Shown here piece by piece: positions 10,396 to 63,874 of a DNA stretch of 64,000 nucleotides (within the stretch, counting starts at the first letter, position 1; every line of letters starts with the position of its first letter). Source of the DNA: a virus; the IMG/VR virus record IMGVR_UViG_3300035210_000189, positions 32,001 through 96,000 of that record, one strand, 5' to 3'. A program made the position numbers and the translations under genes. The notes under the pieces are model-generated. The model ran no database searches and was not told the origin of the DNA. It saw only the letters and a list, made by a program, of their open reading frames with translations.

Positions 10396-11043
10396 ATGAG
10401 AAAACCAATTAATGTCAATACTATTGAGGAACTGAAAGCAGTTGCATTTGATTATAATGCTCCTGTTTTCGTTGCTCCTGAGCTTTTGATGAATGAAATC
10501 ATTGAGACTGATGAAGAATGTGATAAACTCTTGGCTAACTTATCCCATTATCATAAAAGTGTCATCGCCTTCTTTTTCAGATGTGAAGGATTTAGGGTTT
10601 ATTTTTTGGTGATTGATAGCTTTGTTGTCGTAAAAAACTATGTTCTTGATAATGTAACGATTGCTAATTTGAAAAAATTTGTCATTCAATCCGTTCGCTT
10701 TGATTCAGGCAGTCACCAGTGGAATGAAAAACAATTTTATTCTTACAAACGTGGAAATAAACCTGACAGTGTGGAACGCAGTTACGGTTCTTTTATTGCT
10801 AGGTATAGCCATGTTTATGATAAAACCTATGTGAGCCAAATTAGAGTCACTGATCAATCACAATACCTTATTGACATGACCTTTAAACGCAATGGTCGGC
10901 AAATCACATTGATTGAACTGTCAGCAGACTATCCAGAAATTGCATCCGCTTTGAGAGGTAAAGTTCGGTCAATTGAAAACCTTACAAACAAAAGCAAATT
11001 GATTAAATCTTATCTACCTATTATTGATATGATTCTTATTTAA
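10396..11043 (+). CDS. hypothetical protein with C-terminal M-x-x-I tag
   Basis: ends LPIIDMILI*. Confidence 0.8.
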   Translation: MRKPINVNTIEELKAVAFDYNAPVFVAPELLMNEIIETDEECDKLLANLSHYHKSVIAFFFRCEGFRVYFLVIDSFVVVKNYVLDNVTIANLKKFVIQSVRFDSGSHQWNEKQFYSYKRGNKPDSVERSYGSFIARYSHVYDKTYVSQIRVTDQSQYLIDMTFKRNGRQITLIELSADYPEIASALRGKVRSIENLTNKSKLIKSYLPIIDMILI

Positions 11044-11052
11044 GGAATAACC

Positions 11053-11682
11053 ATGCTATTAATCAATACCATTGACCAATTAAAAGAATGTTTGTTATCA
11101 GTTGAGCAAACTGGACGATTTGTCACACCTGTTAAAGAATTCGTTAAGGCTGGTCAGATTATTAAACCCGAGAACCGAAATGAATATATTTACGTTCTGG
11201 ATGATCTTCATACTATTTATTTTCAATTGAGTGAAGATCTTATTGTCTTCAAAGGGTTTCAGATTAAGCCAGAAAAACACTATATTTTCCATAGACTAGA
11301 TAACCTTCCATGCTCTCTATTTTATCTTAAAAATGGTAATTTAAACACTACAAGTTGGTATGTGAATGGTATTGCTGTTCGTGACAATCCTATGCAACCT
11401 GTCGTCGTAGATCGTCGTGATGGTGATTTCTGGACGTTTCAGTATGCAACCTCAGATGATGGTTGCTTTGAGATGTCTCATATTATCTATGACAAGCGTA
11501 AGAAAGGTGAATGGCGTGTCATGGACATGTTGGCTAGGCGTCGTGGACAAAACATGAATTTTAAAGAGATTAAAAAACAATTTCCTTTTGTTGAAGATAT
11601 TACATTTGAGGATTGTTATGATCTTAGTAAAAACATCTTTACTGCAGATCAAGTGACATTGATGAGAATGATTGATATTTGA
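11053..11682 (+). CDS. hypothetical protein with C-terminal M-x-x-I tag
   Basis: ends VTLMRMIDI*; N-terminus INTIDQLK resembles VNTIEELK of the upstream ORF. Confidence 0.8.
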   Translation: MLLINTIDQLKECLLSVEQTGRFVTPVKEFVKAGQIIKPENRNEYIYVLDDLHTIYFQLSEDLIVFKGFQIKPEKHYIFHRLDNLPCSLFYLKNGNLNTTSWYVNGIAVRDNPMQPVVVDRRDGDFWTFQYATSDDGCFEMSHIIYDKRKKGEWRVMDMLARRRGQNMNFKEIKKQFPFVEDITFEDCYDLSKNIFTADQVTLMRMIDI

Positions 11683-11790
11683 AATCGGCAATATAATACT
11701 GCTTAATATTAAAAGATGGCACCTAATCGGCATTATATTGCAGATTTAGGTGCTTTTTTGTATTCTTTTATGCAATATAATGCAGTTTGA

Positions 11791-12603
11791 TTAAATTTCG
11801 ATCATTTCAATCAGTTTTAAGTAATCCATAAAAGCCACTTTGTTATCACCATTAAAATTATCATAAAATGACTTATTGACCACTTTAAACCAATTGTTAT
11901 CTTCCAAGTCAATATTTTTAGGATCGAAGAAGCTTGAATCTACTTCTTCTTTTACATTCATGACGTGTTTAGTAAATCTTAACAACATTAGTTCTGATGC
12001 AACATCACCATTAGAGTTGAGTGAGTAACTTGTAGCATTAGATTTAACTATATTTTTCAATTCAAATGTCTTACGGCAAATTTTATGATTTTTGTCAAAG
12101 AAATATGTCATGCTCGACATCTTTCTTAAATGCAACAAGATCACCCAGTGTTTCTGCTTGATGGCATAGGCTGAACCGTAGTAATCTTTTTGTAGATGAA
12201 ATTCTAATTCATTACCTTCTTTATTGAAATGATTTAAGTTCAGATGATTGATTAATGTTGATTCGAATGATTCACCCTTATACAGAGCACTGTAATGCGT
12301 TTGTTGACCTTTTTCATTATAATACACATAAATAGGCAACTCAAACTCACAGTTAAACAATTCAAATAAGTTAAATTTAAAGGTAATGACAATGCAATCA
12401 CTTGATTTTCCAGATACATAAAAAGAGGTTTCGTCTTTTACCAAATCAAGATGTTCTTTAATTAACTCTTTGGTTAAATTTGGATTATTGTTAATTGCTA
12501 TTAATTTTTCACACATCATGGCACGAACAATTTCAAAGTGCTTGTCTTTGAGCTTATTATTCTTAGATAACTCTTCAAAATTTGGAAAGTATAATTTCAT
12601 CAT
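11791..12603 (-). CDS. hypothetical protein with C-terminal M-x-x-I tag, paralog of 12619..13410
   Basis: ends LKLIEMIEI*. Confidence 0.8.
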   Translation of the reverse strand: MMKLYFPNFEELSKNNKLKDKHFEIVRAMMCEKLIAINNNPNLTKELIKEHLDLVKDETSFYVSGKSSDCIVITFKFNLFELFNCEFELPIYVYYNEKGQQTHYSALYKGESFESTLINHLNLNHFNKEGNELEFHLQKDYYGSAYAIKQKHWVILLHLRKMSSMTYFFDKNHKICRKTFELKNIVKSNATSYSLNSNGDVASELMLLRFTKHVMNVKEEVDSSFFDPKNIDLEDNNWFKVVNKSFYDNFNGDNKVAFMDYLKLIEMIEI

Positions 12604-12618
12604 TCACCCTGTATTTTG

Positions 12619-13410
12619 TTAAATTGCTATCATGTCTATTACATTCATATAATCCAAGAATGCAGTGCGTTTGTCACCTGTTAAGCTTCTGAAAAAGTGT
12701 TTATGAACTTCCCGCATCCATTCTGATTGGGTGAAATCTATATCTTTGTAATTAATAAATGATGAATCAACAGAATCTCTTTCATTTGTGACATGTTTTA
12801 CGAACTTTAAAAACATAAGTTCAGTTTCAAATTTCTCAAAACCTTCCATTGAATAATTAGAACTTGAATTATTAATTTTTGATTCAAAACCACGCAAATA
12901 AACCTTATGCTCAGTGTCAAAACGATATTTTAAAGTAGTCCTTATTTTTGGATATTCTGGTGTTTTTATATAATTTTCTTTGATGATTTCATATACAGTT
13001 TTATTGTTTGCATCTTCATCTAATGAAAACTCTAATTTAGACAAATCGTCATTAAAATGATTAATATTTAAAAGATTCATTAAACTTAAATCATTTTTTG
13101 ATCCCATATATGTTGAATGCCATCTATTGTATTTTCCATGTTGATTAAAATATAAATGTACAGGTATTACAATATAACAATCGAAAAAATTAACAGCAAA
13201 GTTAACTGTACAGTAATCCTTAGTATTATAAAATTTGGTAGTTGTTCCATAAATCCCAAGGTTACTTTGAATATCTTCATCTGTGATATTTGGGTTATTA
13301 TTCATTTTTACGAATTTTTCATACAATAATTCCCACACCTTACCTTCTTGGTCTTTCGCAAGGTTTGGGTTGCTTGATAATTCTTCGTAATTTGGAAATG
13401 AAAGATACAT
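12619..13410 (-). CDS. hypothetical protein with C-terminal M-x-x-I tag, paralog of 11791..12603
   Basis: ends MNVIDMIAI*; shared L.FPN.EELS.N, LN.NHFN, ELM.L.F.KHV.N. Confidence 0.8.
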   Translation of the reverse strand: MYLSFPNYEELSSNPNLAKDQEGKVWELLYEKFVKMNNNPNITDEDIQSNLGIYGTTTKFYNTKDYCTVNFAVNFFDCYIVIPVHLYFNQHGKYNRWHSTYMGSKNDLSLMNLLNINHFNDDLSKLEFSLDEDANNKTVYEIIKENYIKTPEYPKIRTTLKYRFDTEHKVYLRGFESKINNSSSNYSMEGFEKFETELMFLKFVKHVTNERDSVDSSFINYKDIDFTQSEWMREVHKHFFRSLTGDKRTAFLDYMNVIDMIAI

Positions 13411-13563
13411 TTAACATCCTCAATTTATATATCTTTTGATTATACCTTATTTTGTTGTTTTAGTCTATGATTTTGCCTATTAAATGTTCATAAAAAAGAC
13501 ATAATTTTATTGATTTTATTTTTAAAATATGTTAAAATACTTGCTCTTTAAGAGGTGATTTTT

Positions 13564-13998: not shown

Positions 13999-14005
13999 CA
14001 ATATC

Positions 14006-14377: not shown

Positions 14378-14411
14378 TATATCTTTAATTTTTTAAAATG
14401 AGGTATTTGAC

Positions 14412-16210: not shown

Positions 16211-16834
16211 ATGAATGTCAATTCGGCTGAAACAGATAGCTTTAAAGAACTGTTTACTGTGTTCGCTAAGGAACACGATATAATGGTGGGGCGTTATTGT
16301 GCCGTAAAACTTCTCAGTTTCTACAATCATAATTTTGATCCTGTTATGCTCTTCCAGCTTGATGCTGATGTCGTTGCACCCTTGGTTTTAAAACCTTTTA
16401 AACATTTTCATGTAAAAAAGTTGGTCACACGATTAACCGATTTTTTGAGTGAAGTCGTTGAAGATAGTTTAGAGGGGTTTCTTGCTGCCAACTTCTTTGA
16501 TCAATTCACCCTTCACAATATTCAAAATATTGTCTTGAAAGAAGGTTATACCAGTGTTCATGATGTGGCTTATTATCAATTAGAATTGCTCAGCACATCC
16601 ACCCGACTTATGGTGAATTTTCATACTGAACCTGTTCAGCCTAGATTTTACAGAAATACAGAAATGAAGGGAACTATTAAATATCTCAATCTGGATGTTT
16701 ATTATCGAGATTTTGAATCACTCAGAGAACCCATGTTGGAACATTATGCTGATGAAATTGGTAAATTTCTCAATATTCCAGTGAATGAAATTGATGATAA
16801 TGTTTTAAAACTTGTTGAAATGGTTAAAATCTAG
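16211..16834 (+). CDS. hypothetical protein with C-terminal M-x-x-I tag
   Basis: ends VLKLVEMVKI*. Confidence 0.75.
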   Translation: MNVNSAETDSFKELFTVFAKEHDIMVGRYCAVKLLSFYNHNFDPVMLFQLDADVVAPLVLKPFKHFHVKKLVTRLTDFLSEVVEDSLEGFLAANFFDQFTLHNIQNIVLKEGYTSVHDVAYYQLELLSTSTRLMVNFHTEPVQPRFYRNTEMKGTIKYLNLDVYYRDFESLREPMLEHYADEIGKFLNIPVNEIDDNVLKLVEMVKI

Positions 16835-16914: not shown

Positions 16915-18000
16915 ATGTCTACGTTTAAAGCGACAGTTCTTCCAGTCATTGTTGAGCCACATCCTAACGCTGATGCGATTGAACTGGCTCGCGTCGGGGA
17001 TTTCTTCTCGATCATTCAAAAAGGATACCTGAAAACAGGTGACTTGGCTGTTTATATTCCAGAAGGTGCCCTTGTTCCTGATTTCATTCAAGAAGAAGTG
17101 GGTTGCCTTGGTAAATTGGCAGGTTCCAAGAAAAACCGTTTGAAGCCTTCCATGCTTCGTGGTGTTCTTAGTCAAGGTCTTTGCTTTAAAGCCCGTGATG
17201 GCTGGGCTATCGGTGACGATAAAGCCGAAGAATTGGGTATCATCAAGTATGAAGCTCCTATTCCAGCCTCCATGAATGGTGAGATTTCTAACGTGGGCAT
17301 TGAAAACACTTTCCACTTTGACATTGAAAACGTCAAGCGTTACCCTGATGTATTGGTTGATGGTGAGCTTGTATCCATGACTGAAAAACTTCATGGCACG
17401 TTCACTATTGCTGGTAGCGTTTATGGTAAAGACCCTATTCCACATGTGGTTGATGGTCGCTCATTCGTGAGTAGCAAAGGTTTCTTTAACAAAGGCTTGG
17501 TGCTTCGTGACAACGAACAAAATGCTCATAACATTTACATTCGTGTTGCTAAAAAGTTCAATCTTTATGAGATTACAGCCATCCTTGCAGATCGCTACAA
17601 AACCAATGCTTATATTTCGGGCGAAACATTTGGTGCTGTTCAAGATTTGACTTACGGCTTGGATGCTGGCGTATTTGATTTCCGTGTCTTCAACTTGTTC
17701 CTTGGTTCGCGTAGTGATGCAAAAGGCGTGTTCCCAGTGGATGATGATGTGCTTGAAGCCTTGCTCACTGAGTTCAACTTGAAACGTGTTCCTGTGCTTT
17801 ACAAAGGCCCATACAGCAAAGAAGTCATGTTGAAATACACTGATGGGTTGGAAACTTACTCTGGCAAAGAAACACACATTCGTGAGGGTCTTGTTGTGGA
17901 ACCGCTTGTTCAGCGTCGAGATCCAGCCATTGGCCGTGTTGTCTTAAAAAGCGTTTCAACTGCTTACCTTTCTCGCAAAGGCGGCACAGAACTAAACTGA
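16915..18000 (+). CDS. RNA ligase, DRB0094/Rnl2-like family with N-terminal OB-like domain
   Basis: N-terminal HPNADAIELARV; nucleotidyltransferase motifs TEKLHGT (I), GETFG (III), FRVFN (IIIa), REGLVV (IV), LKSVS (V). Confidence 0.88.
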   Translation: MSTFKATVLPVIVEPHPNADAIELARVGDFFSIIQKGYLKTGDLAVYIPEGALVPDFIQEEVGCLGKLAGSKKNRLKPSMLRGVLSQGLCFKARDGWAIGDDKAEELGIIKYEAPIPASMNGEISNVGIENTFHFDIENVKRYPDVLVDGELVSMTEKLHGTFTIAGSVYGKDPIPHVVDGRSFVSSKGFFNKGLVLRDNEQNAHNIYIRVAKKFNLYEITAILADRYKTNAYISGETFGAVQDLTYGLDAGVFDFRVFNLFLGSRSDAKGVFPVDDDVLEALLTEFNLKRVPVLYKGPYSKEVMLKYTDGLETYSGKETHIREGLVVEPLVQRRDPAIGRVVLKSVSTAYLSRKGGTELN

Positions 18001-27979: not shown

Positions 27980-28994
27980 TTTTTTCCCCTAAGTTAATAT
28001 TTTCTTTATTTTTCTTTATTTTTATTAAAGCTGACAATAATGTTTTATTCTTTGTTTCATTTAGTGCTTGCATTGCAGCCTTAACACCATCTTTTTTGTA
28101 TATATTAATTAACCTTATGTCTTCATCTTTATATTTCATTAAATTATTATATTGATGTATTTTTGTTGCTTTTATTTCATAACCAATTTTACTTTTCAAA
28201 TACGCTTCATCTTTTGGTATAAAATTATCATGAAACTTTTCCATTATCTCAAAGATGTCTTCATTACTGAATTCATTATATGTAAGATAATGAAATAATT
28301 TAACATAATCAGTATAGTTTTCTGTTGCTCTTTCTATGGTGACTACACCATCTGGTAGGCTCTCTCCACTTAGCAACGTAGCCTTGTGTTTATAAAGTGG
28401 TGTTCCTTCTTTGTTAAATGCCATACTATGTTCAGTGATTATATTTGTGATACTAGCACTTAAAATATTTCCTTGAAAGTTAATTAAAATTGCTACGCTT
28501 AGACAAGCAATAGCTGTTAGACTCATCATTCTGACATTCTTTAAGTTATTAATATTTGAGAGATAGACAGCAATCGCTGCTATTATTAAACAATAAATAT
28601 TAAAAGATGTTGGATTGTATTCAGTTAAAACTCTTATTTTATTTTCTGATAATGATTGTATGGCACCATAAAAAATAAATATAATGCTGTAAATCAATAT
28701 TTGAACTTTTAAAGCAAATGCTATTATTCTTGTTGTTGCTGTTTTTCCAAAATATAATAATATTAACAAATAGCTTACGATATAAAATAATATGTAGACT
28801 ATACTGAATACTAAATTCGTGTTTAGTTTTATATATTCTGATTCTGTTCCAGTTATATATTTGTAAGGACCAGCAGTACTGTATAAAAAACCAGCCGCTT
28901 CTGTTATTCCCATGTAACTTAATGCAATTAGTATTACGTTTATTAATGCTATTGCGATCACAAGTTTACCGCTTATTATGTTTTCAATTTTCAT
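27963..28994 (-). CDS. multi-pass membrane protein, paralog 1 of tandem triplet
   Basis: same motifs; start overlaps the DUF1643 stop. Confidence 0.8.
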   Translation of the reverse strand: MKIENIISGKLVIAIALINVILIALSYMGITEAAGFLYSTAGPYKYITGTESEYIKLNTNLVFSIVYILFYIVSYLLILLYFGKTATTRIIAFALKVQILIYSIIFIFYGAIQSLSENKIRVLTEYNPTSFNIYCLIIAAIAVYLSNINNLKNVRMMSLTAIACLSVAILINFQGNILSASITNIITEHSMAFNKEGTPLYKHKATLLSGESLPDGVVTIERATENYTDYVKLFHYLTYNEFSNEDIFEIMEKFHDNFIPKDEAYLKSKIGYEIKATKIHQYNNLMKYKDEDIRLINIYKKDGVKAAMQALNETKNKTLLSALIKIKKNKENINLGEKNENNR

Positions 28995-29479
28995 TTTTCT
29001 TCACTTAATTTAAATTCTATGAATGTCTGATCGCCTTTTATGTACAATGGGTGTTTTGGCATACCGGCTTTGGTAGTCCCTAAACAATACATTTCAACGC
29101 CTAACTCACTCAGCATGTTGTAGACTTCAATCACTCTATTCATCTTGGCATTTCCACCCCAAGCACAAATGATTTTTTTATTACTGGTAAATAAGTTCTT
29201 CAAATATTCATCATTTTCACAACCCACCGGATCTTCGGTTAACCAGAGACTTTTTGGTGTGGGTGAACGATACGCATAAAGATTGACTACTTTGAGTGAA
29301 TCGTATCCATTATCTTTCGCAAATTGAATACATCGTCTAATCGTGGGATCATCAAGCATGGCATCTGCAGTGCTTGGATTTAGCATACAAAATATGGCGG
29401 GATTATTGGCGTTTTCTACGAAGTCTCTACCTAGTTCATAACGGTATTTTTGACACTGACTAATGATGGCTGTTTTCAT
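28991..29479 (-). CDS. DUF1643 domain protein
   Basis: AIIS.C.KYRY.L.R, MLNPSTAD...DDPTIRRC, VVNLYAYR, AWG, PKHPLY are characteristic of DUF1643. Confidence 0.88.
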   Translation of the reverse strand: MKTAIISQCQKYRYELGRDFVENANNPAIFCMLNPSTADAMLDDPTIRRCIQFAKDNGYDSLKVVNLYAYRSPTPKSLWLTEDPVGCENDEYLKNLFTSNKKIICAWGGNAKMNRVIEVYNMLSELGVEMYCLGTTKAGMPKHPLYIKGDQTFIEFKLSEEK

Positions 29480-31367: not shown

Positions 31368-32027
31368 ATGAACGAACATGTTTGTAAAATTAAACAAACA
31401 CTGCGTCAATTAGGCTTTTCACTATCAATTGTGGAGAGTCTAACTGATTCACACTTCCATTATTCAACTGAAAACGAACATTTCAAACACTCAAAATATA
31501 TTATTTCAGATTCTTCTAATATAAAAATTTTTGAATTAGAACTCTATGAATATAATGACTATAATACAATTAGTTTAAAGTTTGAACAGCAGCAAGAGAT
31601 TCTTAAAAGAATTAATCTTACAACTTATGATAAAAAAAATCTTTATCGTTACTGCACTCTTCATTTCGATAAAAAGTATGACTTCTTACACCTCAGCATC
31701 AGTGATGGCTTGGACATTATTACTGATAAATTAAAATATTCGTTTGACATTTTTATATGGTTTGACTTTGACATTAATTTAGATTTACAACGAATTAAAG
31801 TTTCTGGATACACTCATTCTGGAACTGAACTTTTATTTGATATTAGTAAGAATAAAGAAAATATACTTCCTATTGATGATGAACTCTTGTTGATTGAATT
31901 TCTTCAATATCAATATAATGATGATATTATTGGTTACGTTCCTGAGTTCTATATACCAGCCGCCTATGATTTCAATTCAGATGAATTTAACATCCGTATT
32001 TCATTAGCTAAAATGATGATTATTTAA
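31368..32027 (+). CDS. hypothetical protein with C-terminal M-x-x-I tag
   Basis: ends RISLAKMMII*. Confidence 0.75.
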   Translation: MNEHVCKIKQTLRQLGFSLSIVESLTDSHFHYSTENEHFKHSKYIISDSSNIKIFELELYEYNDYNTISLKFEQQQEILKRINLTTYDKKNLYRYCTLHFDKKYDFLHLSISDGLDIITDKLKYSFDIFIWFDFDINLDLQRIKVSGYTHSGTELLFDISKNKENILPIDDELLLIEFLQYQYNDDIIGYVPEFYIPAAYDFNSDEFNIRISLAKMMII

Positions 32028-32138: not shown

Positions 32139-33293
32139 ATGAACCTTTTTCCAAAAATCGAACACATCAACGATATTTTGCCAGCTTTGGCAGGTAAAAC
32201 CTATATCGGTGTGAACAAGCAATCTAACGGTGCAACCGTTCTTTGCTACAACATCAGCAACGGTGAATCTTTTGCTACGCCTTTTGAAAAAGAATGCCGT
32301 GGTATCACCTTTGACCGTGATGGTAAAATTGTAAACCGTCCTTTGCACAAGTTTTTCAACTTGGCAGAGCGTGAAGAAGTATTGCCACACAACATTAACT
32401 GGGATGATGTGGTTGCTGTCTTCGATAAGATGGATGGTTCTATGATTACTGCTGGTGTGTTTCATGGCGACGTATTTGTAAAATCCAAAAAGTCTTTTGA
32501 ATCAGATGTGGCTGTGTCGGCTTTGGCTTATGTTAAAGCAAACCATAAATACGAAGATTTCATTAAGCATTGTGCATCCTTGGATTTGACACCAATCTTT
32601 GAATACACTTCGCCAAACAACCGTATCGTGTTGCGTTACGATGAAGAAAAAATGACGTTGTTGCATGTGCGTCATACTATCAATGGTAATTATTTCATGC
32701 CAGATGAAGTGGCTGCATTGGCTAAGTCGTTTGATATTCCAGTGAACGCTCCATTGTTTGGTAAAGGTTTTGACTTGAAAGCATTGTTGCATTCATTGGA
32801 CACTGTTGAAGGGATTGAAGGTTACGTTATTCAGTTCTCAAATGGTAACATGGTTAAGGTAAAAACAACTTGGTATGTTAACTTACACCACGCAGTAACA
32901 TTCGTGCGTATTCGTGACATTGCTCGCTTGGTTTTATCCGAGAAAATTGACGACTACATTGCATTTGTTGCATTACATGCAAAAGACGCTGATTTGACTC
33001 AAATCCATTACATCAATGACACGATTAAAGCAGAAATTGAAGGAATCAAGAAAGACGTTGCTGATATTTTGGCTCAACATGAAGGTGTTGATTTCAAAAC
33101 CTTGGCAACCACCTACTTGGGTCATCCATATTTCTCTTTCATCATGACTACCGCTCGCGGTAAAGAAGTTGATTACTTGGATTACTACGAACGTAATCGT
33201 TTGAAAGAAGTCTGGTCTTTGGAGCAAGTTGACTTGGGCAACTTCACAGGGACTGATGATTCTGATGATGAAGTTCCAGTAGATGAAGATTAA
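32139..33293 (+). CDS. RNA ligase 1 (T4 Rnl1/RnlA family)
   Basis: ECRG, RPLHKFFN, KMDGS (motif I), FEYTSPNNRIVLRY, IEGYVI, VKVKT.WY. Confidence 0.9.
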   Translation: MNLFPKIEHINDILPALAGKTYIGVNKQSNGATVLCYNISNGESFATPFEKECRGITFDRDGKIVNRPLHKFFNLAEREEVLPHNINWDDVVAVFDKMDGSMITAGVFHGDVFVKSKKSFESDVAVSALAYVKANHKYEDFIKHCASLDLTPIFEYTSPNNRIVLRYDEEKMTLLHVRHTINGNYFMPDEVAALAKSFDIPVNAPLFGKGFDLKALLHSLDTVEGIEGYVIQFSNGNMVKVKTTWYVNLHHAVTFVRIRDIARLVLSEKIDDYIAFVALHAKDADLTQIHYINDTIKAEIEGIKKDVADILAQHEGVDFKTLATTYLGHPYFSFIMTTARGKEVDYLDYYERNRLKEVWSLEQVDLGNFTGTDDSDDEVPVDED

Positions 33294-35233: not shown

Positions 35234-35863
35234 ATGAGGTCTTCAATAGTGATTAATTTAGTTACCGACAAACAAACCATTAAAACCATTAAATCAGGTT
35301 TAAGTTTAGATGATATTCAACATCCTGCTATTCGAATTGACCACTGGGTGTATAACGCTCAGATATTCAGAGATTTGCAGATGGATAATAATGGGTTCAA
35401 ACCCCCTGCTGACATTCTTAACTATCTTTATTGTGCGTCTTACAATGACTTTTTAAAAGCCTATAACATTACCAAGAGTAGTTTTGTGTTTGACACCTTC
35501 AGACGTTACAAGCATTACGCCTTGAAATACCAAAAAGGAGCAGACACCTATTACTTTACCGTTAGTTATAATTCTGAGCGTGGTATGGATATTATCTTTT
35601 ATCCGCACATGATACCTTCTGGTTTTGATGCTAGGGCTTGGAACGAGTTTGAGGGCGAATTGTATTTGGAATATGCCAACCTTATGTATGAGTTCTTGAC
35701 AGAGTTTTATGCCTCCATTTTGAATCATTTGTTTGATACTTATGATGTTAATTCAATTATTGATAACTTCTCAAAATCATACCGCAATTCAGCCGGTGCT
35801 GTTGCTATTTTAACTGAATATGAACAAACTCGTGACATTACATTGATTATGCCAGCACTGTAA
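35234..35863 (+). CDS. hypothetical protein (weak C-terminal tag variant ITLIMPAL*)
   Basis: 209 aa ORF with promoter. Confidence 0.7.
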   Translation: MRSSIVINLVTDKQTIKTIKSGLSLDDIQHPAIRIDHWVYNAQIFRDLQMDNNGFKPPADILNYLYCASYNDFLKAYNITKSSFVFDTFRRYKHYALKYQKGADTYYFTVSYNSERGMDIIFYPHMIPSGFDARAWNEFEGELYLEYANLMYEFLTEFYASILNHLFDTYDVNSIIDNFSKSYRNSAGAVAILTEYEQTRDITLIMPAL

Positions 35864-37651: not shown

Positions 37652-37718
37652 AGATTTTTATTGCATAAACCATTTTTTACTGGTATACTCTTGCAATCAT
37701 ACTATTGGAGATTTAACA

Positions 37719-38111: not shown

Positions 38112-38223
38112 TAGAAAGCGATCCTTTTTACCAAAAAGACCATCTTCGGATGGTTTTTTTATTGTTATTTTTCATGAAACGTATTATAATACAAGCCTAA
38201 ATCACAACCATGAGTAAACTGAC

Positions 38224-38655
38224 ATGCCTAATTTCAATTTAAATGACGTTGTTGCTGATCTGACTAATATGCATCAGTGGCGGAATCCTGAGCAGTTTAA
38301 ATCCGAGTTGTTTGTATACGATTTTAACAAGCGTGTTTTCATGACCAATGAAAATAGTTTTATCATCAAGTCTTCTCATCAAAATCAAAATTCTGATCTC
38401 TTTATGTCTGATAGTGCTATTTTTTCGAATGTCAGTGGTTTGAGTGAAGATAATTCCCGTGTCTTGTTTAACCTAACACCGCACCTTCATGGCATTGGAA
38501 TTATTTTGAAAGAACAATTGAAAGAGCAAGAGCTGGTAAATCTTCGGGCCAGTATTGCTGATGGAGCTGAGGATGATATGGTTCAATACATCACAGCATT
38601 GAAAGATGCCTTCTTGACCTATTTTGATCGACTACATGAAGAAATTGCAGCATAG
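38224..38655 (+). CDS. hypothetical protein, paralog of 38708..39136
   Basis: clearly similar tandem pair, both ending ALKDAFLTYFDRL.EEIAA. Confidence 0.8.
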   Translation: MPNFNLNDVVADLTNMHQWRNPEQFKSELFVYDFNKRVFMTNENSFIIKSSHQNQNSDLFMSDSAIFSNVSGLSEDNSRVLFNLTPHLHGIGIILKEQLKEQELVNLRASIADGAEDDMVQYITALKDAFLTYFDRLHEEIAA

Positions 38656-41929: not shown

Positions 41930-42513
41930 TGAAAGCTATTACTGTCATTAACTCTATCATTGCTAAATACAACTTGTCCTTTTCCACTCGTTGGAGAGTG
42001 TTGGAACACCTTTTTCTGGTCAATGGCAATGGCTGTTATTGGACAACTTATGGGTGTTTGGATGGTAATCCTGAACATTATCAAGAAAGTGAACTTGGTG
42101 AAAATAGCACTATTCAGTCATTGCTTCAAACGTTGGAACTTCTAAAAGATTATGATATGCCAAAGATGACAGATGCCTATCATTTGCAAATTAAGTTTGA
42201 AGAAGGTCTTGATAAATTCAAGCAAGCCAACATGAAAAAAATTGCGGCTAATCAATTCTTTTTCTTTGACAGTCAGATACCTACATTCCAAGATCTGTCC
42301 CGTGCTTCGTTTAACCATCTGTTTTATGAAGTCCCTGATAACGTTCAACCTGACTGGAAAGCACTGATTGTTGAAACGGCTTGTATTGTCCAGAAAGGTA
42401 TTAAGAGCAGTTACTTTGTATCTGGCCCTTTGACTGCACCAGAATCGTGGAGCAACCCAGAAGCATTTGCCGTTTACATGGCCGCAGAAAACCAGCTAAA
42501 ATCTCTAAAATGA
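41929..42513 (+). CDS. hypothetical protein (family with 61366)
   Basis: YN..F.TRW.VL.H.F...G.G..W and DW..ALVE-like motifs shared with 61366..62004. Confidence 0.75.
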   Translation: MKAITVINSIIAKYNLSFSTRWRVLEHLFLVNGNGCYWTTYGCLDGNPEHYQESELGENSTIQSLLQTLELLKDYDMPKMTDAYHLQIKFEEGLDKFKQANMKKIAANQFFFFDSQIPTFQDLSRASFNHLFYEVPDNVQPDWKALIVETACIVQKGIKSSYFVSGPLTAPESWSNPEAFAVYMAAENQLKSLK

Positions 42514-42582
42514 CTTCTTAGTCTATTGATTTTTCGTCCTACTGTGTTATAATGGCCTTCTTAATTAGGGAGGTCATTTATC

Positions 42583-43074
42583 ATGTCAAACAATCATGAA
42601 ATCGAAAATCTTGAAGATAAAATTTTCACGACCTTACGCCGTCACGGGAACTATTCGATCCCTAAAAATGCGGTAAACATTTATGCACCTATCCTTACTT
42701 TGCTGACTAAAATGAGTGAAGATGGCTTGGTTGTGCAAAGTGAAAACCCTAATAAGATCATTTTCACTACTACCGAAAAAATGGCACAGACTGTCATTAT
42801 TCGTGGGGTGACTGCAGATAAAGTCCGCACAGGATTTCACCTTTGTCGTCAAAAGAATGATGAAGTTGTCGCACAGGTTAATGCTCGTAACCGTGAAGTT
42901 TATATCAAGGATATTGACTTTCTTGGTGTTGTTCAATCTGTGGAAACAAAAGAAGTGCCTGCTAATATTTGGGAAAAGCTGACTTTTAGAAAAAACAGCT
43001 TGAAAACAGTGATTAAATTCAAATACAAAACACTGGTGGTGTCTCCTGAAACTGAATTGATGAAAGTTCGTTAA
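42583..43074 (+). CDS. hypothetical protein
   Basis: GGAGG RBS, promoter. Confidence 0.75.
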   Translation: MSNNHEIENLEDKIFTTLRRHGNYSIPKNAVNIYAPILTLLTKMSEDGLVVQSENPNKIIFTTTEKMAQTVIIRGVTADKVRTGFHLCRQKNDEVVAQVNARNREVYIKDIDFLGVVQSVETKEVPANIWEKLTFRKNSLKTVIKFKYKTLVVSPETELMKVR

Positions 43075-43582: not shown

Positions 43583-44260
43583 ATGAACGCAGCTACCCAA
43601 CATTTCAGTGGTGTTTTTACTAAAATTAAGACACTCATCAGCCAATATAAACTTTCAGAGTTTATTAATTCTTCTTTGCTGTTTTCTTCGCTCTGTTCGT
43701 TGGCTATGCTGTATGCCTTCTCTTATGGATTGCAGACAGAAAGCCGTGAATTGATTGTCTTTACCCCGCTTAATGCTATTAGTTCATTCCTTTTATTTTG
43801 TTTTGGCTTATGGATGACAAAAAGCTCTAAATTACCAGATCGCTATTATAGCTGGTCCTCGGCCATTAACTATCTCGGGGTGCTGTTACTTATTCCTTAC
43901 CTTGTCTTTATTGACAATCGGTCAATGGTAGCATTGGCAATGTCGTTTTTCTTTATCAATATTTTTAACTTGTGTATCCTGTTACACCTATTAAATTTCC
44001 GTTCTAATTACCACCATGACTGGAATGCCTTGCGTAAACTGACATCATTGAAATCTGGTTTCAATTTCAAACTGTCGATGGGAGTAAAATTACATGTGTT
44101 GATGCCTGTGGGTTTAGTGACAATCTATTTTGATAAAATTTGTGTGAATGGTGTTGATTATGATTTGTATGATCTAACCAAATACTTTGAAACCCATGAT
44201 TTAGATTTAAATACCGCCACTGATGATGATTTTAAACTGTTTGAAATGATCAGATATTAA
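43583..44260 (+). CDS. four-TM protein with soluble C-domain ending in the M-x-x-Y tag
   Basis: ends ATDDDFKLFEMIRY*; shares YYS, LRKL motifs with the next two ORFs. Confidence 0.78.
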   Translation: MNAATQHFSGVFTKIKTLISQYKLSEFINSSLLFSSLCSLAMLYAFSYGLQTESRELIVFTPLNAISSFLLFCFGLWMTKSSKLPDRYYSWSSAINYLGVLLLIPYLVFIDNRSMVALAMSFFFINIFNLCILLHLLNFRSNYHHDWNALRKLTSLKSGFNFKLSMGVKLHVLMPVGLVTIYFDKICVNGVDYDLYDLTKYFETHDLDLNTATDDDFKLFEMIRY

Positions 44261-44283
44261 TTACGTTAGATAAGGATTGATTT

Positions 44284-44946
44284 ATGAATAAAATTATATT
44301 TTTTTGTCAACGTTTGTTTGTCTCCTATTCTGTGTCTTTGATGGCTATTATTTTTTCTGTTTTTTTTGGAATAGCTAACTCAGGTATTGTGGAATCAGAT
44401 ATTATTGGCATTGTAGTAACAGGTTGTTTAGCCTTGGTTATGCTTGTTATGTGTGCGGATGGCCGTGCAGAAATTAAAAATATTACTTACTATTCAAAAG
44501 TGGCAAGTTTAAACTATCTATTCAGCTTTTTATTGATTGTTTATACTATTTTAATGAAAGGATTTGATATACATTTCATGTTGGCACCTGCTCTATTGTT
44601 AAGTCTTTTTAATATATATCTGTGTTTTAAAATGCAATCAAATCTTTCTAATCTGGTCGTGGTTCCTGAACTTCAAAAACTTCGTAAATTGCTACCTGAT
44701 GTCAAACACTTCAAGATTGATTATGATTACACTTTTTTGAAACCTACTGATGCTCCGAGGTATGAGCCAAGATCTTACAAAATTATCACGACACTTGGAA
44801 ATCTATCTTTTGATGGAAGATTCTTTTATCTTAATGGACATACTTATGAGATAGCTAACTTTATTTCGGGTTATAGATCGTGTAATATTAACATTGACAC
44901 ATCAACACCAGAAGATGCTACCGTTATGCAAATGTTTTGTATATAA
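44284..44946 (+). CDS. four-TM protein with soluble C-domain ending in the M-x-x-I tag
   Basis: ends STPEDATVMQMFCI*. Confidence 0.78.
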   Translation: MNKIIFFCQRLFVSYSVSLMAIIFSVFFGIANSGIVESDIIGIVVTGCLALVMLVMCADGRAEIKNITYYSKVASLNYLFSFLLIVYTILMKGFDIHFMLAPALLLSLFNIYLCFKMQSNLSNLVVVPELQKLRKLLPDVKHFKIDYDYTFLKPTDAPRYEPRSYKIITTLGNLSFDGRFFYLNGHTYEIANFISGYRSCNINIDTSTPEDATVMQMFCI

Positions 44947-45035
44947 AAGCAATGGTATAAGCCATTCTGATCTATCATGTTTACTCGGAATAGTGTATAA
45001 TCAGCTTCTAATTTAAATAATGCCATGAGGTATTT

Positions 45036-45698
45036 ATGAAATCATTAAACATGTTACGTCAGTTAAATTTAGCATCCTTCATCATGTTGGCGTGTGCTAT
45101 TTATTGTGCTGTTGCTTCATTTCATTACGTGACAGTAAATGGAAATAAGTTTTTCTTTGCTGTCGGTGGTGTTACTTCGGTGATGTTGGGTTTTGCGGTT
45201 GTCTTGAATGTATTGAATATTTTCATGATGCCGCGAGATAAATTCTATTCCAATGGGGCATGGACATTCCATTTACTCAGTGTACTGCTGTTGGTTACAT
45301 CGTTTACAGCCCCCGAAGAATATTTGATCAACTTTATCAGTATCGCTGTGCTTTCCATTTTCAATATTGTTGTTTTTTTAAGCACGATGTCATTTCGTTC
45401 TCGTGAATCGACGTTGATCAATCAACTTCGAAAACTATTTCCTGATGAAAAGTTCTTTAATTTCGATATTGATTTCAAATTTAAGAAAGACTTCATTGAA
45501 GACGCTGTTGATACTTACATTTCTGGCATTCGTCTCTTGACGCCCTTTGGCAAAGTAGTGTTTGTCGGTGATGGTTTTTATTTCGATGATCGTTTTCATG
45601 AAGCTAAACGCTTTGTGACTAGCCTAAAAGATTGTGGTTTTAAGTTTAATAAAGCAACACCTGACGAAATGAAAGTTGTTGAAATGCACGTTTATTAA
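45036..45698 (+). CDS. four-TM protein with soluble C-domain ending in the M-x-x-Y tag
   Basis: ends ATPDEMKVVEMHVY*. Confidence 0.78.
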   Translation: MKSLNMLRQLNLASFIMLACAIYCAVASFHYVTVNGNKFFFAVGGVTSVMLGFAVVLNVLNIFMMPRDKFYSNGAWTFHLLSVLLLVTSFTAPEEYLINFISIAVLSIFNIVVFLSTMSFRSRESTLINQLRKLFPDEKFFNFDIDFKFKKDFIEDAVDTYISGIRLLTPFGKVVFVGDGFYFDDRFHEAKRFVTSLKDCGFKFNKATPDEMKVVEMHVY

Positions 45699-48036: not shown

Positions 48037-48618
48037 TTACTGTTTTTGGAACTTAGCCCACTCTTCTTTGATGGTTTCTGAATCGACAAAGACAGCAATA
48101 TTTTCATAGACTACATCGTTAATCTTGATATCATGATCTCGACCGACTGACATACCAAGGATGGCTGATTTGTCTGCAGAGTAGACTGGCCCACCTGACA
48201 TGCCACCAATCGTTTTGGAATCACTAATGGCATAGCGACCATCTTTAAACTCAACTTCATCTCTGATGAACTTCCCACGTAGTTCAACCGATAAACCATT
48301 TGGCTTCGGGCCTACATGAATAACTTCTTCATCATCTTTTGGTGTTCTCCATTCAATGTTTGGATTGAATTTATCATTCGGTTTGTTTTTGAAGAACACA
48401 AGATCAACCGTTTCACTCACGTAATCAGGCGATTCTGGGTATTTGTTGTGCTTGGCTGTTACGGCATATTCTTCATTCCACTGAATAAAGCTGGCCGTCA
48501 CTACTTCGGGGTTTTTGTTTCCAATAATGGTATCATAATTACTATTGGGAGCATGACTTGAACAACCAACAACTGCAGCAGCCAGAACCAATGCACACAT
48601 CATTTTAACGATTTTCAA
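48037..48618 (-). CDS. trypsin-like serine protease lipoprotein (intact triad)
   Basis: lipobox VVGC; VTAKH (His), VDLVF (Asp), GMSGGPV (Ser); TTG start 48618 after AGGAG. Confidence 0.82.
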   Translation of the reverse strand: MKIVKMMCALVLAAAVVGCSSHAPNSNYDTIIGNKNPEVVTASFIQWNEEYAVTAKHNKYPESPDYVSETVDLVFFKNKPNDKFNPNIEWRTPKDDEEVIHVGPKPNGLSVELRGKFIRDEVEFKDGRYAISDSKTIGGMSGGPVYSADKSAILGMSVGRDHDIKINDVVYENIAVFVDSETIKEEWAKFQKQ

Positions 48619-48765
48619 TGTTAATACTCCTATTAAAGTTGCAACGATTATACGCTTAAATATTAATATTAGCAATTGTTTTTTTGTTCTTTATAACCTT
48701 TTTGGATTACTGTTTGACGAAAAACCAATTTGAGGTATACTTTTTCCATTGGTAGGAGATGTAAA

Positions 48766-59853: not shown

Positions 59854-59970
59854 TATAAGCACACAAGATAATGTCTATATTAAAAGAGCCGACGAAAGGC
59901 TCTTTTTTTCGTTTAGCCCTTTTATTTGTTAGTATTTGATATATAATAGTTGCAAACTAAGGAGTGTATT

Positions 59971-60654
59971 ATGTTTAAATTAATGGCGGTTCTTTTCTCG
60001 GGATTATTCCTTACTGGTTGTGCCGTTCATGACATCGGTAAAACATTGGACAGAAAGAAAGATAATTATTCCATTCTTGAAACTGTTCATGAGCCACAAA
60101 ACAATTTGAACTATGTCCGGTTTGAAAGTCGTAAAACAGATGGAGCAGACACTTACTTTACTGTTTCCAGTGGTGTTCAATGGAACGATGACTATGTGGT
60201 CGCTTTAAAAACCACTGAAAGTGAGAATGATAAGTTTGCCTGTCTTGATGCATGTGGGGTTGTCTTTATCAAGAAACATAAAACAGCACCCGTGCCTGAA
60301 TGGCGTCACCGTGTCAGTAACGAGCCTGTTATTTTGTTAGGGGCTTCTGATGAAGTTGACGAAACGTTTGTTTTTAAATCAATGGACATTGATGTTTCTG
60401 CTATCAGTGCTGACATTACACCTTATCCAGTTTATGCAGTTCCTACAACGATTGTTGAGAATAATGCAGAAGGTGGCCCTGTTTATGGGAATGACGGTAA
60501 AGTGATTGGTATCATTTCTGGCTTCGTCAACACAGTGGATGATACAGGTGAACGATTAACCTATCTGGATGGTTTTGATTCTGGTTATTTTGCTTTGTAT
60601 ATTCCATACAGTGAATTGATTAGAGCATGGGATTTAGTCAAACCTGTTAAATGA
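59971..60654 (+). CDS. trypsin-like lipoprotein, catalytically degenerate
   Basis: lipobox LTGC; VQWNDDYVVALKT (His lost), NNAEGGPV (Ser lost). Confidence 0.72.
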   Translation: MFKLMAVLFSGLFLTGCAVHDIGKTLDRKKDNYSILETVHEPQNNLNYVRFESRKTDGADTYFTVSSGVQWNDDYVVALKTTESENDKFACLDACGVVFIKKHKTAPVPEWRHRVSNEPVILLGASDEVDETFVFKSMDIDVSAISADITPYPVYAVPTTIVENNAEGGPVYGNDGKVIGIISGFVNTVDDTGERLTYLDGFDSGYFALYIPYSELIRAWDLVKPVK

Positions 60655-61360: not shown

Positions 61361-61365
61361 TTAAT

Positions 61366-62004: not shown

Positions 62005-62101
62005 TCATTAACTATTAAAGGACTGAATAGTCCTTTTTTGTTGCTTATCTTTTAGTTTTTTGATATAATAACGACCTCATAAACCAACATAGAGAGTAAT
62101 C

Positions 62102-62827
62102 ATGTTCAGACATATCGTTATTGCTACGATTACCAGCTTGATTGTTGGTTGTTCGTTTAATCCCTTCAATTCAGAAGCTGAACGAGCAAAACAGCCCATT
62201 GATGGACTTAAAAACTATAATGTTGTGCAAGACGCCAGTGTTAATATGGGCGGTAGAGAACTGAGCTTTATCACTTTTGAGAAAACTGTTGAAGTTGTGG
62301 TTAATCAAAATGGAAAGATGATTAAAGACTCTCAATCACAATATGCCAGTGGTGTTCAATGGAATGAAGATTATGTGGTGACGACCAAAAATGTCGATTT
62401 TGCAGACGGGTCTGTTCAGCCATGTATCAAAGATTGTGAGATTCAATTTATCAAACGAAAAGCAACCGCTCCGGTTCCTGATTGGCGTTCTCATGTTGTT
62501 AATGAGCGAATCACCTTTGTAGGGATTGAAAGTGAAGCTCGTTTTCGTGCTGAATTTGGCATGGATTTGAACGTTAAAACCTATACTGAAACCAATACCG
62601 GCACGTTGCTCAATGTAGCCGATAATCAAATTGTTAACGGCATGTCAGGTGGTCCAGCTTATGGTCTGGATGGTAAAGTCGTTGGTATTTTGACGGGTTC
62701 GACTGAAACGATAAATCTTCGTAATTCAACCAATCGTAATTTGAGTGGACGTGGTGAACACTTGTCAGTCTATCTTTCTTATGAAGATGTTCAGAAAGAA
62801 TGGGAAAAATTTCAACAATCACATTAA
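62102..62827 (+). CDS. trypsin-like lipoprotein, catalytic His replaced
   Basis: lipobox IVGC; VQWNEDYVVTTKN (His replaced by Asn), GMSGGPA (Ser retained). Confidence 0.75.
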   Translation: MFRHIVIATITSLIVGCSFNPFNSEAERAKQPIDGLKNYNVVQDASVNMGGRELSFITFEKTVEVVVNQNGKMIKDSQSQYASGVQWNEDYVVTTKNVDFADGSVQPCIKDCEIQFIKRKATAPVPDWRSHVVNERITFVGIESEARFRAEFGMDLNVKTYTETNTGTLLNVADNQIVNGMSGGPAYGLDGKVVGILTGSTETINLRNSTNRNLSGRGEHLSVYLSYEDVQKEWEKFQQSH

Positions 62828-62851
62828 TTATTTTAATATTAGGAGAATACA

Positions 62852-63061
62852 ATGGAAGCTAAACTTAAAGAATATCAAGCGATGACTGAACGTTTTCGTG
62901 TGTTGGAAACCGAAATCCTGACATCCATTCAAGCCGTGGGAAAAGCCAAAGGCTTTAATTGGTCGATTCACTCTATTTCTAATTTGTTTGTTGGTGCTGA
63001 CTACGTTTCTTTTAAAGTCAATGGTCTGCCCAAACGTCTTGAAATGCATGAGGTTGTTTAA
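62852..63061 (+). CDS. small hypothetical protein
   Basis: AGGAG RBS. Confidence 0.65.
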   Translation: MEAKLKEYQAMTERFRVLETEILTSIQAVGKAKGFNWSIHSISNLFVGADYVSFKVNGLPKRLEMHEVV

Positions 63062-63091
63062 TATCCATCATTTTAATTAAAGGTTTTCTCC

Positions 63092-63874
63092 ATGAAAAAT
63101 ATTATCAAAAACCATTTAAAAAAATTATTTGAAGAGACTTTTAAACTTCCAGTTCATAAGATCCTTTTCTCTAAAAATAAGTATAATTCTCAAATTTTTG
63201 CCGGTAATGTTTATTATGGCGACAATAAAAAATTAAAATATAAATTTACGACAACTCCTATCAATGAAGACTCATTTACAACTAAGTTAGTTATTCCAAC
63301 TGATGATGATTTGTATCAATCTGATTATTTTTCTGGTTTGATTGAAAATCATGTCATTTATCAAAAAGTCAGAAGTTGTTATAATTTAAACCATAAGTAC
63401 AAACAGTTTCGCCTTGATGAATATGAATCTCCTATTGTCATCAAGCAGACTGTCAAAAACAACAAAGTCGAAGTTACTCATGATTTTCAATTACATATTT
63501 TCTCTGTGAATGGTTTGAATTCAAAGTCTGTTTTAGAAGGTCAGTTGGACACTAATATTTTTCTTGAATGGACAGATAATAACCTCATTAATGTTCGTGA
63601 TCCTTATTTGAAACAAAATATTCATTATCCTAACAAGCGACGTATCATTGCTTTTCAGGGGCATGGTGATCAAAATATGGAGCAAAATGAAGATACTTAC
63701 AATTTTATTTTAGATATTATCCATCAAAACTTTATTCACTTTATCGCTTATCATCAACGTGGCACTGTACCTATTGATGAAATGACAATTGAAGAAGTTT
63801 ACAAGACAAATCATACGGAATTAAATTATAGATTCATTTCTGAAAATCTTGTTCGGGATATGGTTTTGATTTAA
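63092..63874 (+). CDS. hypothetical protein with C-terminal M-x-x-I tag
   Basis: ends SENLVRDMVLI*. Confidence 0.75.
   Translation: MKNIIKNHLKKLFEETFKLPVHKILFSKNKYNSQIFAGNVYYGDNKKLKYKFTTTPINEDSFTTKLVIPTDDDLYQSDYFSGLIENHVIYQKVRSCYNLNHKYKQFRLDEYESPIVIKQTVKNNKVEVTHDFQLHIFSVNGLNSKSVLEGQLDTNIFLEWTDNNLINVRDPYLKQNIHYPNKRRIIAFQGHGDQNMEQNEDTYNFILDIIHQNFIHFIAYHQRGTVPIDEMTIEEVYKTNHTELNYRFISENLVRDMVLI

Follow-up and report, generated by a model that had tools for sequence, protein, structure and literature searches.

A C-terminal tail with methionine four residues from the end is shared by many proteins of a giant phage-like element

The DNA analyzed here, referred to as the window, is a 64,000-nucleotide stretch comprising bases 32001-96000 of the 152,440-bp record of an uncultivated giant phage-like element from peat, and we read it as part of the element's accessory arm. 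A sequence-only reading had listed ten ORFs in the window as ending in a common tag, and all ten are present with their C-terminal peptides exactly as written. The first carrier (10396..11043, plus strand, 215 aa, a singleton cluster) has the tail ...LPIIDMILI (codons 11008-11043), in which a Pro at -8 marks the start of the helix. It found no match in Pfam and PHROG searches, and shows a weak reciprocal profile link to the neighboring carrier (11053..11682, plus strand, 209 aa, tail ...TADQVTLMRMIDI at 11647-11682), whose ortholog in L033, a relative of 53% identity, retains the tail. Two paralogs of family F lie on the minus strand at 11791..12603 (270 aa, tail ...DYLKLIEMIEI at 11791-11826) and 12619..13410 (263 aa, tail ...DYMNVIDMIAI at 12619-12654). 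The AlphaFold model of the former runs through three helices, nine strands and three further helices, the last predicted to span residues 255-269, and the latter has a sigma70-like promoter, TAGACT-17-TATAAT, at 13467-13439. A singleton of 207 aa (16211..16834, plus strand, stop codon TAG) carries the tail ...IDDNVLKLVEMVKI at 16799-16834. The carrier at 31368..32027 (plus strand, 219 aa, tail ...IRISLAKMMII at 31992-32027) belongs to family B, a remote relative of family A with 15 members in two genomes. Only weak profile hints toward family B were obtained for a weak or degenerate carrier at 35234..35863 (plus strand, 209 aa), which ends in ...DITLIMPAL, with Met at -4, Pro at -3 and Leu at -1. 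Finally, a singleton of 260 aa at 63092..63874 (plus strand, tail ...ISENLVRDMVLI at 63839-63874) gave no match in a Pfam search.

The remaining three carriers form family D, a trio at 43583-45698 on the plus strand: 43583..44260 (225 aa, tail ...TATDDDFKLFEMIRY), 44284..44946 (220 aa, tail ...STPEDATVMQMFCI) and 45036..45698 (220 aa, tail ...ATPDEMKVVEMHVY). Their four-transmembrane architecture is clearly different from that of the soluble carriers. In the first of them, four predicted transmembrane helices are followed by a domain of ~85 aa, ending in the tail, for which the positive-inside rule predicts a cytoplasmic location; this C-terminal domain is homologous to the ORF at 1-612 of a related fragment, G001. 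G001 encodes further carriers that have a hydrophobic N-terminus. Thus, the tail occurs on more than one body architecture.

The shared tag is real, and far more common than the ten cases first listed. Across the whole record, M-x-x-[ILVY] ends 36 of 247 non-overlapping ORFs of at least 50 aa, and a strict nine-residue pattern, h-x-h-h-x-M-x-x-[ILVY]-stop, is found at 31 ORF ends. The same strict pattern occurs inside proteins at 21 of 45,427 positions, from which 0.11 matches are expected at the ends, and 1000 per-protein shuffles averaged 0.18, none exceeding 3. The 31 observed ends thus stand against 0.1-0.2 expected. Since many carriers are tandem paralogs they are not independent, but the signal holds when counted by BLAST cluster (about 12 tagged clusters in this record, and about 26 of 289 when G001 is added). 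Four fragments, each 50-59% complete, were available. In a syntenic relative 56 of 307 ORFs are tagged, and the tail is also present in two further relatives and in the relative of 53% identity. Carrier genes, arranged as tandem arrays of variable copy number, account for about 15-18% of gene content here, or about one protein in six, and encode cytoplasmic proteins of roughly 205-270 aa, besides a few membrane proteins; over all carriers the length range is narrow (170-401 aa, median about 250). The motif is locked to the chain end, as almost none of 97 proteins in 26 families extends past -1. The most distant family A relatives among 1.84 billion representatives still keep the tail. A family A paralog without the tail persists in several relatives, so the body may not need it, or this copy may be decaying.

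A family-weighted logo was built from the same 26 families and 97 proteins. It has Met at -4 (97%) and Ile (73%) or Tyr (16%) at -1, preceded by Asp at -11 (47%), hydrophobic residues at -9 (75%), -7 (82%) and -6 (72%), and Asp (32%), Glu (32%) or Lys (10%) at -5; position -3 is hydrophobic in 81%. The consensus, D-x-h-x-h-h-[DE]-M-h-x-[I/Y]-COOH, corresponds to a C-terminal helix that is N-capped and 8-12 residues long. Ahead of the tail, most families have a capping box (S/T/D-x-x-E/D) or else Pro at -8, indicating a discrete short terminal helix, and what had been described as an acidic turn just upstream appears from the sequences to be its N-cap, at about -11/-12. In our reading the helix would be hydrophobic round most of its circumference, without clean amphipathicity. 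At the other hydrophobic positions L, V, I and F replace one another without restriction, whereas the Met is not exchanged, and a fixed Met amid drifting positions is unusual for simple core packing. The argument from synonymous codon use also held: all information in the DNA logo sits in the first two positions of each codon, the third ones vary, and beyond the stop there is no conservation. By this measure, selection on the tail acts on the protein and not on the DNA. Between orthologs, tagged proteins are 91.5% identical in the tail and 79.7% in the body, compared with 84.0% and 87.2% for untagged proteins; between paralogs, tail identity is 1.2-2.8 times body identity. As judged from these alignments, no part of these fast-evolving carriers is under tighter constraint than the tail.

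The bodies had been taken to be largely unrelated. This stands for the four-transmembrane family, which is distinct, but not for several soluble families, which are linked by profiles and AlphaFold models. Profile comparisons were run with the tails trimmed off and scored against an empirical null with a maximum of 23.5. They tie family A to family C (31.3 over 145 columns) and to family B (25.6), link F to a G001 family, and join several other pairs; F-T15 scores 55.9 and E-T9 34.6. Scores between tagged families exceed the null overall (Mann-Whitney p = 0.01), with 33 pairs against 16 expected above its 95th percentile; the excess is small, which leaves the majority of families unconnected. 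No clear sequence link joins families A and F, but their last 70 or so residues align end to end in hhalign, and AlphaFold predicts the same order of elements in both: three N-terminal helices, 8-9 strands, and C-terminal helices that end in the tail. They also have 13 of their top 50 structural neighbors in common. The tail ends a helix modeled at residues 226-258 in family A (pLDDT of the last blocks 97 and 87) and at 255-269 in family F (88 and 76). From the profile links and the common order of elements in A and F, most carriers, the soluble ones in particular, are probably one huge, fast-diverging, lineage-specific and undescribed superfamily. Its predicted fold consists of three N-terminal helices, an antiparallel sheet of 8-9 strands and a C-terminal helical part. 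The outcome that the sequence-only reading had named as counting against itself, a single homologous family with a terminal helix, is therefore found in part, among soluble carriers only. Searches with the carrier bodies pointed to no described fold, with Foldseek E-values above 1e-3 against PDB and BFVD, best Z of 6.2 and 5.0 in VIA, and TM-scores in ESM Atlas of 0.37 or lower depending on the query. No nucleic-acid-related or other known domain was detected by Pfam and PHROG in the 30 carriers scanned.

We interpret the carriers as proteins with a variable body and a constant C-terminal docking helix, a reading to which we give an even chance of being right. We favor it because of the end-lock, the constraint on the tail, the invariant Met, the independence from body architecture, the discrete helix and a precedent in phages T4 and RB69. 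Each variable body would supply specificity, and we infer that the constant tail, together with the free chain end, would be recognized by one shared cytoplasmic partner, which could be encoded by the host or by the phage. Counting against this reading, a search of the incomplete fragments brought up no receptor, the helix is not cleanly amphipathic, and family A includes the persistent tail-less paralog.

The most serious alternative, which we consider possible but doubtful, is that the tail is simply the last turns of a core-packing helix in one ancient, explosively diverged soluble family and has no external reader. The links between trimmed profiles, the end-to-end match and common element order of A and F with their overlapping structural neighbors, and the narrow lengths of the carriers are all as expected from such a family, and the high pLDDT of the modeled tail helix fits packing on the carrier's own body. 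This explanation does not readily account for a Met that is 97% invariant while adjacent hydrophobic positions drift, or for the exact fixing of the motif at the chain end in about 100 proteins, the bodies of which BLAST can no longer relate. The tail is also carried by the four-transmembrane family and other membrane proteins, and the small excess of profile scores leaves most families unlinked.

Several other readers of a free C-terminus may be considered. ClpX, ClpA and FtsH recognize free hydrophobic C-termini, as in the ssrA tag, the ...RRKKAI end of MuA and the XB tail of SspB. The carrier tail could in the same way be a degron or an adaptor tether to a cytoplasmic AAA+ protease such as ClpXP, FtsH or Lon, giving early carriers a limited lifetime or making them degradation adaptors for the targets they bind. 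FtsH takes both soluble and membrane substrates and would accommodate family D, and the near-consensus sigma70-type promoters found upstream of some carrier arrays suggest early expression. We nevertheless regard this as unlikely. The tail ends in hydrophobic residues as those signals do and, like them, would depend on a free C-terminus, but beyond hydrophobicity there is no resemblance: the known degrons, to which it has no sequence match, lack Met at -4, an acidic -5 and the N-cap, and an acidic -5 with a frequently polar -2 is unlike LAA-type tags. ClpP and AAA families were absent from fragments G000 and G001, each 55-59% complete. Recognition as a PDZ or tail-specific protease ligand, as had been suggested, is also unlikely, because the carriers have no signal peptides, the tail of family D is predicted to be cytoplasmic, and the S41 peptidase family (PF03572) is absent from G000 and G001; of the trypsin-like proteases, all three are lipoproteins, and none has a PDZ domain. 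The proposed link to type IV secretion found no support. A Pfam search of 160 non-carrier ORFs gave no type IV secretion family among the 25 of 29 matched families listed, which is not final as the fragments are incomplete, and the supposed PilV-like pilin (window 1120-2691, minus strand) is a 46-residue match to Shufflon_N at 22.9 bits, below the cut-off of 27.5.

The closest known analogue of the carrier tails is the set of clamp-binding tails of T4 and RB69. The unrelated T4 proteins gp43, gp55 and gp33 have interchangeable hydrophobic-acidic C-termini that serve as clamp-binding epitopes for one receptor (PMC2988020). As in the carriers, a short hydrophobic-acidic motif lies at the extreme C-terminus of otherwise unrelated phage proteins, and the RB69 polymerase, which ends L-F-D-M-F-x-x, has L(-7), F(-6), D(-5), M(-4) and F(-3) in the same register as the carrier logo. 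T4 gp43 ends ...SLDFLFG and gp55 ends ...SLDFLYEAND; T4's own tails have Phe at -4 where the carriers have Met. That the carriers are themselves clients of a sliding clamp, of the phage or the host, or of another replisome hub is nevertheless quite improbable. T4 has three such clients with known functions in replication or transcription, whereas the carriers are orphan proteins and number more than 50; so many clients, integral membrane proteins among them, would be implausible for a DNA clamp. None of the 30 carriers tested, all without a nucleic-acid-related or other known domain, was identified by Pfam as a polymerase, late sigma factor or co-activator. In these incomplete fragments, no gp45-type clamp was found in G000 or G001 (families PF09116 and PF02916, no match above cut-off and a single sub-threshold match of 18 bits inside a family A ORF), and PolB was absent from all four. 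Finally, the T4 tails follow flexible linkers, whereas the carrier tail is modeled as continuous with a helix.

Very improbable, too, is an address for packaging, in which the tail would direct the loading of carriers, either to the procapsid, for co-injection, or to another phage-built shell. Loading of shells commonly works by short terminal helices on unrelated cargo, and the fast-evolving, copy-variable arrays resemble the polymorphic internal-protein loci of T4. Encapsulin and microcompartment peptides are likewise short terminal helices of about 10-18 residues on diverse proteins, but they usually have a flexible linker and adjacent shell genes, in place of the continuous helix modeled here. 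No shell family is among the Pfam and PHROG matches in these incomplete records, where most neighboring genes are unannotated; genes for capsid, scaffold or shell proteins are absent from the vicinity of the arrays, and the structural module is outside the available fragments. Four-transmembrane proteins are unlikely capsid cargo, and the sigma70-type promoters fit, weakly, early and non-virion proteins and not late expression. The capsid-targeting sequence of T4 is also N-terminal and cleaved by the prohead protease at L/I-x-E, unlike the C-terminal, helical carrier motif, in which no more than 64% of families have an acidic -5, with Asp as frequent as Glu. The expanded poxvirus ankyrin proteins with their C-terminal PRANC/F-box-like motif, and the T4 internal proteins with their N-terminal capsid-targeting sequence, are known cases of tandem, fast-evolving genes with a constant docking terminus; the carrier bodies differ from the ankyrin proteins in not being repeat proteins and in having no match to a known fold.

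A signal in the nucleic acid, a conserved ATG...ATH-stop for translation coupling, a promoter or recombination, is extremely improbable and largely refuted by the codon-position logo: the family A tail codons ATG CAG GCN ATH TAA do place AGG 8-10 nt before the ATG of the next paralog, which may explain Gln-Ala at -3/-2 in that family, but the third codon positions and the sequence past the stop carry no information, the amino-acid pattern reaches back to -11, and many carriers end a gene run or precede long spacers.

Returning to the docking helix, its broadest form is a proteome-wide address code, which we put forward tentatively, at somewhat less than an even chance. In such a code a helix of 11 residues, carrying a fixed Met at -4 and ending in a free Ile or Tyr carboxyl group, would route dozens of early proteins, soluble and membrane-bound fast-evolving ones alike, to one hub, and about one in six viral proteins would have its localization, activity or lifetime set by a single receptor. 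Should the tail prove to be a docking handle, dozens of dark-matter genes in giant phages would become accessible by a single experimental route: the hub could be pulled out with one peptide, and the variable bodies would each lead to a target of their own. If it is only structural, it marks a very large, undescribed, lineage-specific superfamily without a recognizable fold match that accounts for 15-18% of the fragments' genes. Met at -4 from the end is a simple sequence marker for this clade in metagenomes, and motifs at the C-terminal end can join families that lie beyond the reach of BLAST and profile methods.

The ten ORFs singled out by the sequence-only reading, together with their C-terminal peptides, are present in the window precisely as described. 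We counted such ends across the parent record (G000, IMGVR_UViG_3300035210_000189; 152,440 bp, classed as a provirus, estimated to be 55% complete, with the window at its bases 32001-96000), using 247 non-overlapping ORFs of at least 50 aa. The tail, M-x-x-[ILVY]-stop, closes 36 of these 247 ORFs, and the strict pattern h-x-h-h-x-M-x-x-[ILVY]-stop closes 31. Inside the proteins, the strict pattern occurs 21 times in 45,427 positions, which predicts 0.11 matches at the ends, and 1000 per-protein shuffles gave a mean of 0.18 terminal matches and a maximum of 3. Enrichment over shuffled C-termini is thus borne out, and the tail motif is real, specific to protein ends and much commoner than the sequence-only reading could see. 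A search of the literature found no description of a Met(-4) tail motif.

A family-weighted logo (26 families, 97 proteins) contains Asp at -11 (47%), hydrophobic residues at -9, -7 and -6 (75%, 82% and 72%, respectively), Asp (32%), Glu (32%) or Lys (10%) at -5, Met at -4 (97%), a hydrophobic residue at -3 (81%) and Ile (73%) or Tyr (16%) at -1. Upstream of the tail, most families have a capping box (S/T/D-x-x-D/E) or Pro at -8, indicating that the tail forms a separate terminal helix, 8-12 residues long. Since the logo is acidic and not cationic, a MinD/FtsA-type amphipathic helix for membrane targeting was rejected. Rare variants include Met replaced by Ile (one paralog of carrier family A), a one-residue extension, and Phe or Thr at -1. 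Two off-register tails lie outside the window, at G000 149976-151016 (-) and at 37641-38573 (-) of the syntenic relative G001; one variant ends ...ELLVVEAMFI, with Met at -3, and the other ...DFLDMAMFK, with two extra residues, while other members of its family end canonically. Also outside the window, a family A paralog (G000 145119-145829, +) is without its last ~30 residues and hence its tail. L014 has the same shortened protein, which is also found as P0056, while the copies in G001 and L015 are full-length and tailed.

Selection acts on the tail at the protein level, as had been proposed from its synonymous codon usage. When the DNA flanking the stop codons was aligned, each family counting once, information was limited to codon positions 1 and 2 (ATG at -4, A-T at -1 and G-A at -5); third positions were variable and nothing was conserved 3' of the stop. 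A four-codon minigene (Met-x-x-Ile-stop, as in the lambda bar minigenes) was rejected because the ATG has no Shine-Dalgarno sequence and the amino-acid pattern reaches further upstream. Across 198 ortholog pairs between G000 and G001, carriers change more quickly than other proteins do (79.7% versus 87.2% identity over the body), whereas their tails, taken as the last 11 residues, are 91.5% identical, above their own bodies and compared with 84.0% for the ends of untagged proteins. In the family A array (G000 137950-143360, outside the window), successive paralogs overlap or sit 0-1 nt apart, and the next paralog's start codon is preceded, at 8-10 nt, by an AGG-containing stretch that belongs to the tail codons ATG-CAG-GCN-ATH-stop. 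Judged from this spacing, the family A tail codons would themselves provide the ribosome-binding site for the following gene. The AGG stretch may lie behind the Gln-Ala at -3/-2 of family A; it leaves the general motif unexplained.

Tails are widespread among relatives. G001 (IMGVR_UViG_3300034157_000065; 192,830 bp, ~88% nucleotide identity) carries the tail on 56 of its 307 ORFs, with about eight further carrier families in its extra 47 kb. In two more IMG/VR relatives the DNA pattern for [DE]-M-x-x-I-stop has 24 matches each, versus 3-4 for a reversed control, and tails are also kept in a 53%-identity relative. In Logan contigs, orthologous arrays of family A differ in copy number but retain their tails. 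Searching 1.84 billion proteins with the family A profile yielded no more than 67 representatives; of the full-length ones, nearly all have the tail, the most distant included. Eight peat metagenome runs contain the DNA, and no RNA runs containing it were listed. No match to 50,697 GenBank phages was found by tblastn with family F and B proteins, megablast with 20 kb of the window gave none either, and a search of bacterial genomes with the RRF protein found no relative that would point to a host. The 53%-identity relative (L033; that figure is protein identity, with synteny to window 8-25 kb) is ENA ERZ27281807 contig k141_282264, bases 899209-920042 of a 1,071,457-bp metagenome contig; for the identical protein, the cluster table additionally names a contig of 834,842 bp. 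The four IMG/VR relatives, by comparison, are all 150-190 kb segments cut out as 'provirus'. The element may exceed every described phage in size by a wide margin, it may be part of a small host genome, or contig assembly may have produced chimeras.

The record encodes T4-type RNA ligases 1 and 2, RegB, several HNH endonucleases, TnpB (G000 100352-101488), RRF, a class I tRNA synthetase, dCMP deaminase and GNAT acetyltransferases. The ligases lie on the plus strand at window 16915-18000 (Rnl2-like, with a PHA02142 OB domain) and 32139-33293 (Rnl1/gp63-like), and the RegB-like endoribonuclease is elsewhere in the record. By its RNA ligase 1, the record comes closest among named phages to Ralstonia phage RsoM2USA, although the identity is only 44%. 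A 272-aa SIR2-family protein (G000 143442-144260, +, outside the window) sits mid-array among family A genes, a position shared by every relative examined (L014-L018). Near-consensus sigma70-type promoters precede some arrays (e.g. TTGACA-17-TAAAAT before G000 146612), which weakly suggests that these would be expressed early. Three trypsin-like serine protease paralogs (phrog_9683; window 48037-48675 (-), 59950-60654 (+) and 62102-62827 (+)) score below threshold for Trypsin_2, carry a GGMSGGP-type serine motif and each have a lipobox Cys in a lipoprotein signal peptide. Together with the record's own Lgt and type I signal peptidase, they resemble a set of genes carried by the phage for exporting and processing lipoproteins, with further loci at G000 97036-97914 (-) and 28441-29022 (+).

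We compared the carrier bodies, which the sequence-only reading had taken to be largely unrelated. Carriers occupy about 26 of the 289 BLAST clusters in G000 and G001; none of 30 scanned has a Pfam domain, and the ten window carriers have no significant PHROG match. After removal of the last 14 residues, HMM searches gave reciprocal weak links, among others A-B, E-23478, F-G001 33206/35261 and 42396-43053, and the best non-self match was another carrier in 14 of 26 families, against about one third expected. Trimmed hhalign scores exceeded the maximum (23.5) of an empirical null of 207 tagged-versus-untagged pairs for A-C (31.3, over 145 co-linear columns), A-B (25.6), F-T15 (55.9), E-T9 (34.6), T13-T19 (47.2) and D-G001 ORF 1 (33.5); the overall shift was modest (p = 0.01), and all-against-all hhalign with G000 paralogs only gave no pair with probability >20. 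Trimmed profiles found no link between families A and F (the latter including window 11791-12603 and 12619-13410, both (-)). Their AlphaFold models (pLDDT 92.5 and pTM 0.88 for A; 84.8 and 0.82 for F) are alike, with a short, a long and a short helix, 8-9 strands and C-terminal helices ending in the tail; they have 13 of their top-50 structural neighbours in common, and in hhalign of A with F the last ~70 residues align end to end (E 0.05). There was no convincing known fold in Foldseek searches of PDB and BFVD (E above 1e-3), by VIA (best Z 6.2 and 5.0) or by ESM Atlas TM-scores (at most 0.37), and nothing usable came from a feature search of the ESM Atlas. Most soluble carriers are therefore probably one explosively diverged, new superfamily. 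The claim of unrelated bodies holds for family D (window 43583-45698), whose four TM helices and small domain, predicted to be cytoplasmic by the positive-inside rule, form a different architecture, but probably fails for many others, going by the trimmed profiles and the A and F models. Hydrophobic N-termini also occur in a few other G001 carriers.

We consider it an even call that the tail is a shared docking handle. The alternative that it is simply a structural terminal helix, with no further function of the chain end, is less likely but credible. In its favour, the AlphaFold models confidently make the tail the last part of a helix, carrier lengths span a narrow range and some carriers are linked by remote homology; simple core packing is argued against by the exact position lock, the invariance of Met while its hydrophobic neighbours drift, the raised conservation of the tail in otherwise fast-evolving proteins and its presence on a different architecture. 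A degron or adaptor-tethering element, or a packaging address, is possible. Complex prediction with two copies of family A scored 0.25 (mark 0.42), a value that speaks neither for nor against the pairing. The single receptor envisaged earlier was not identified in this analysis, nor was a link to secretion shown; the supposed PilV-like protein (window 1120-2691 (-), 523 aa) matches Shufflon_N over only 46 residues at 22.9 bits, below the Pfam cut-off of 27.5, so that a receptor-binding or fibre protein with a small common module is likelier than a pilin. The trypsin-like proteases were set aside as tail readers, their lipoprotein signal peptides being at odds with cytoplasmic tails.

Among docking models, the closest precedent is the clamp tails of T4 and RB69. 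T4 clamp tails are common, interchangeable hydrophobic-acidic C-termini on unrelated proteins (PMC2988020); the T4 tails read ...SLDFLFG and ...SLDFLYEAND, and RB69 has L-F-D-M-F at -7 to -3 (from PDB sequences). A DNA clamp is itself an unlikely reader, given >50 orphan clients that include membrane proteins. In these records, each 50-59% complete, PolB is absent from all four IMG/VR fragments, and neither G000 nor G001 has a gp45-type clamp, S41, ClpP or AAA family. A DNA_PPF (gp45 N-domain) match inside one family A ORF (E 3.4e-4, 18 bits) was judged spurious, no clamp having come up in either structure search. The tail itself is a real C-terminal element, under selection and present throughout the lineage.
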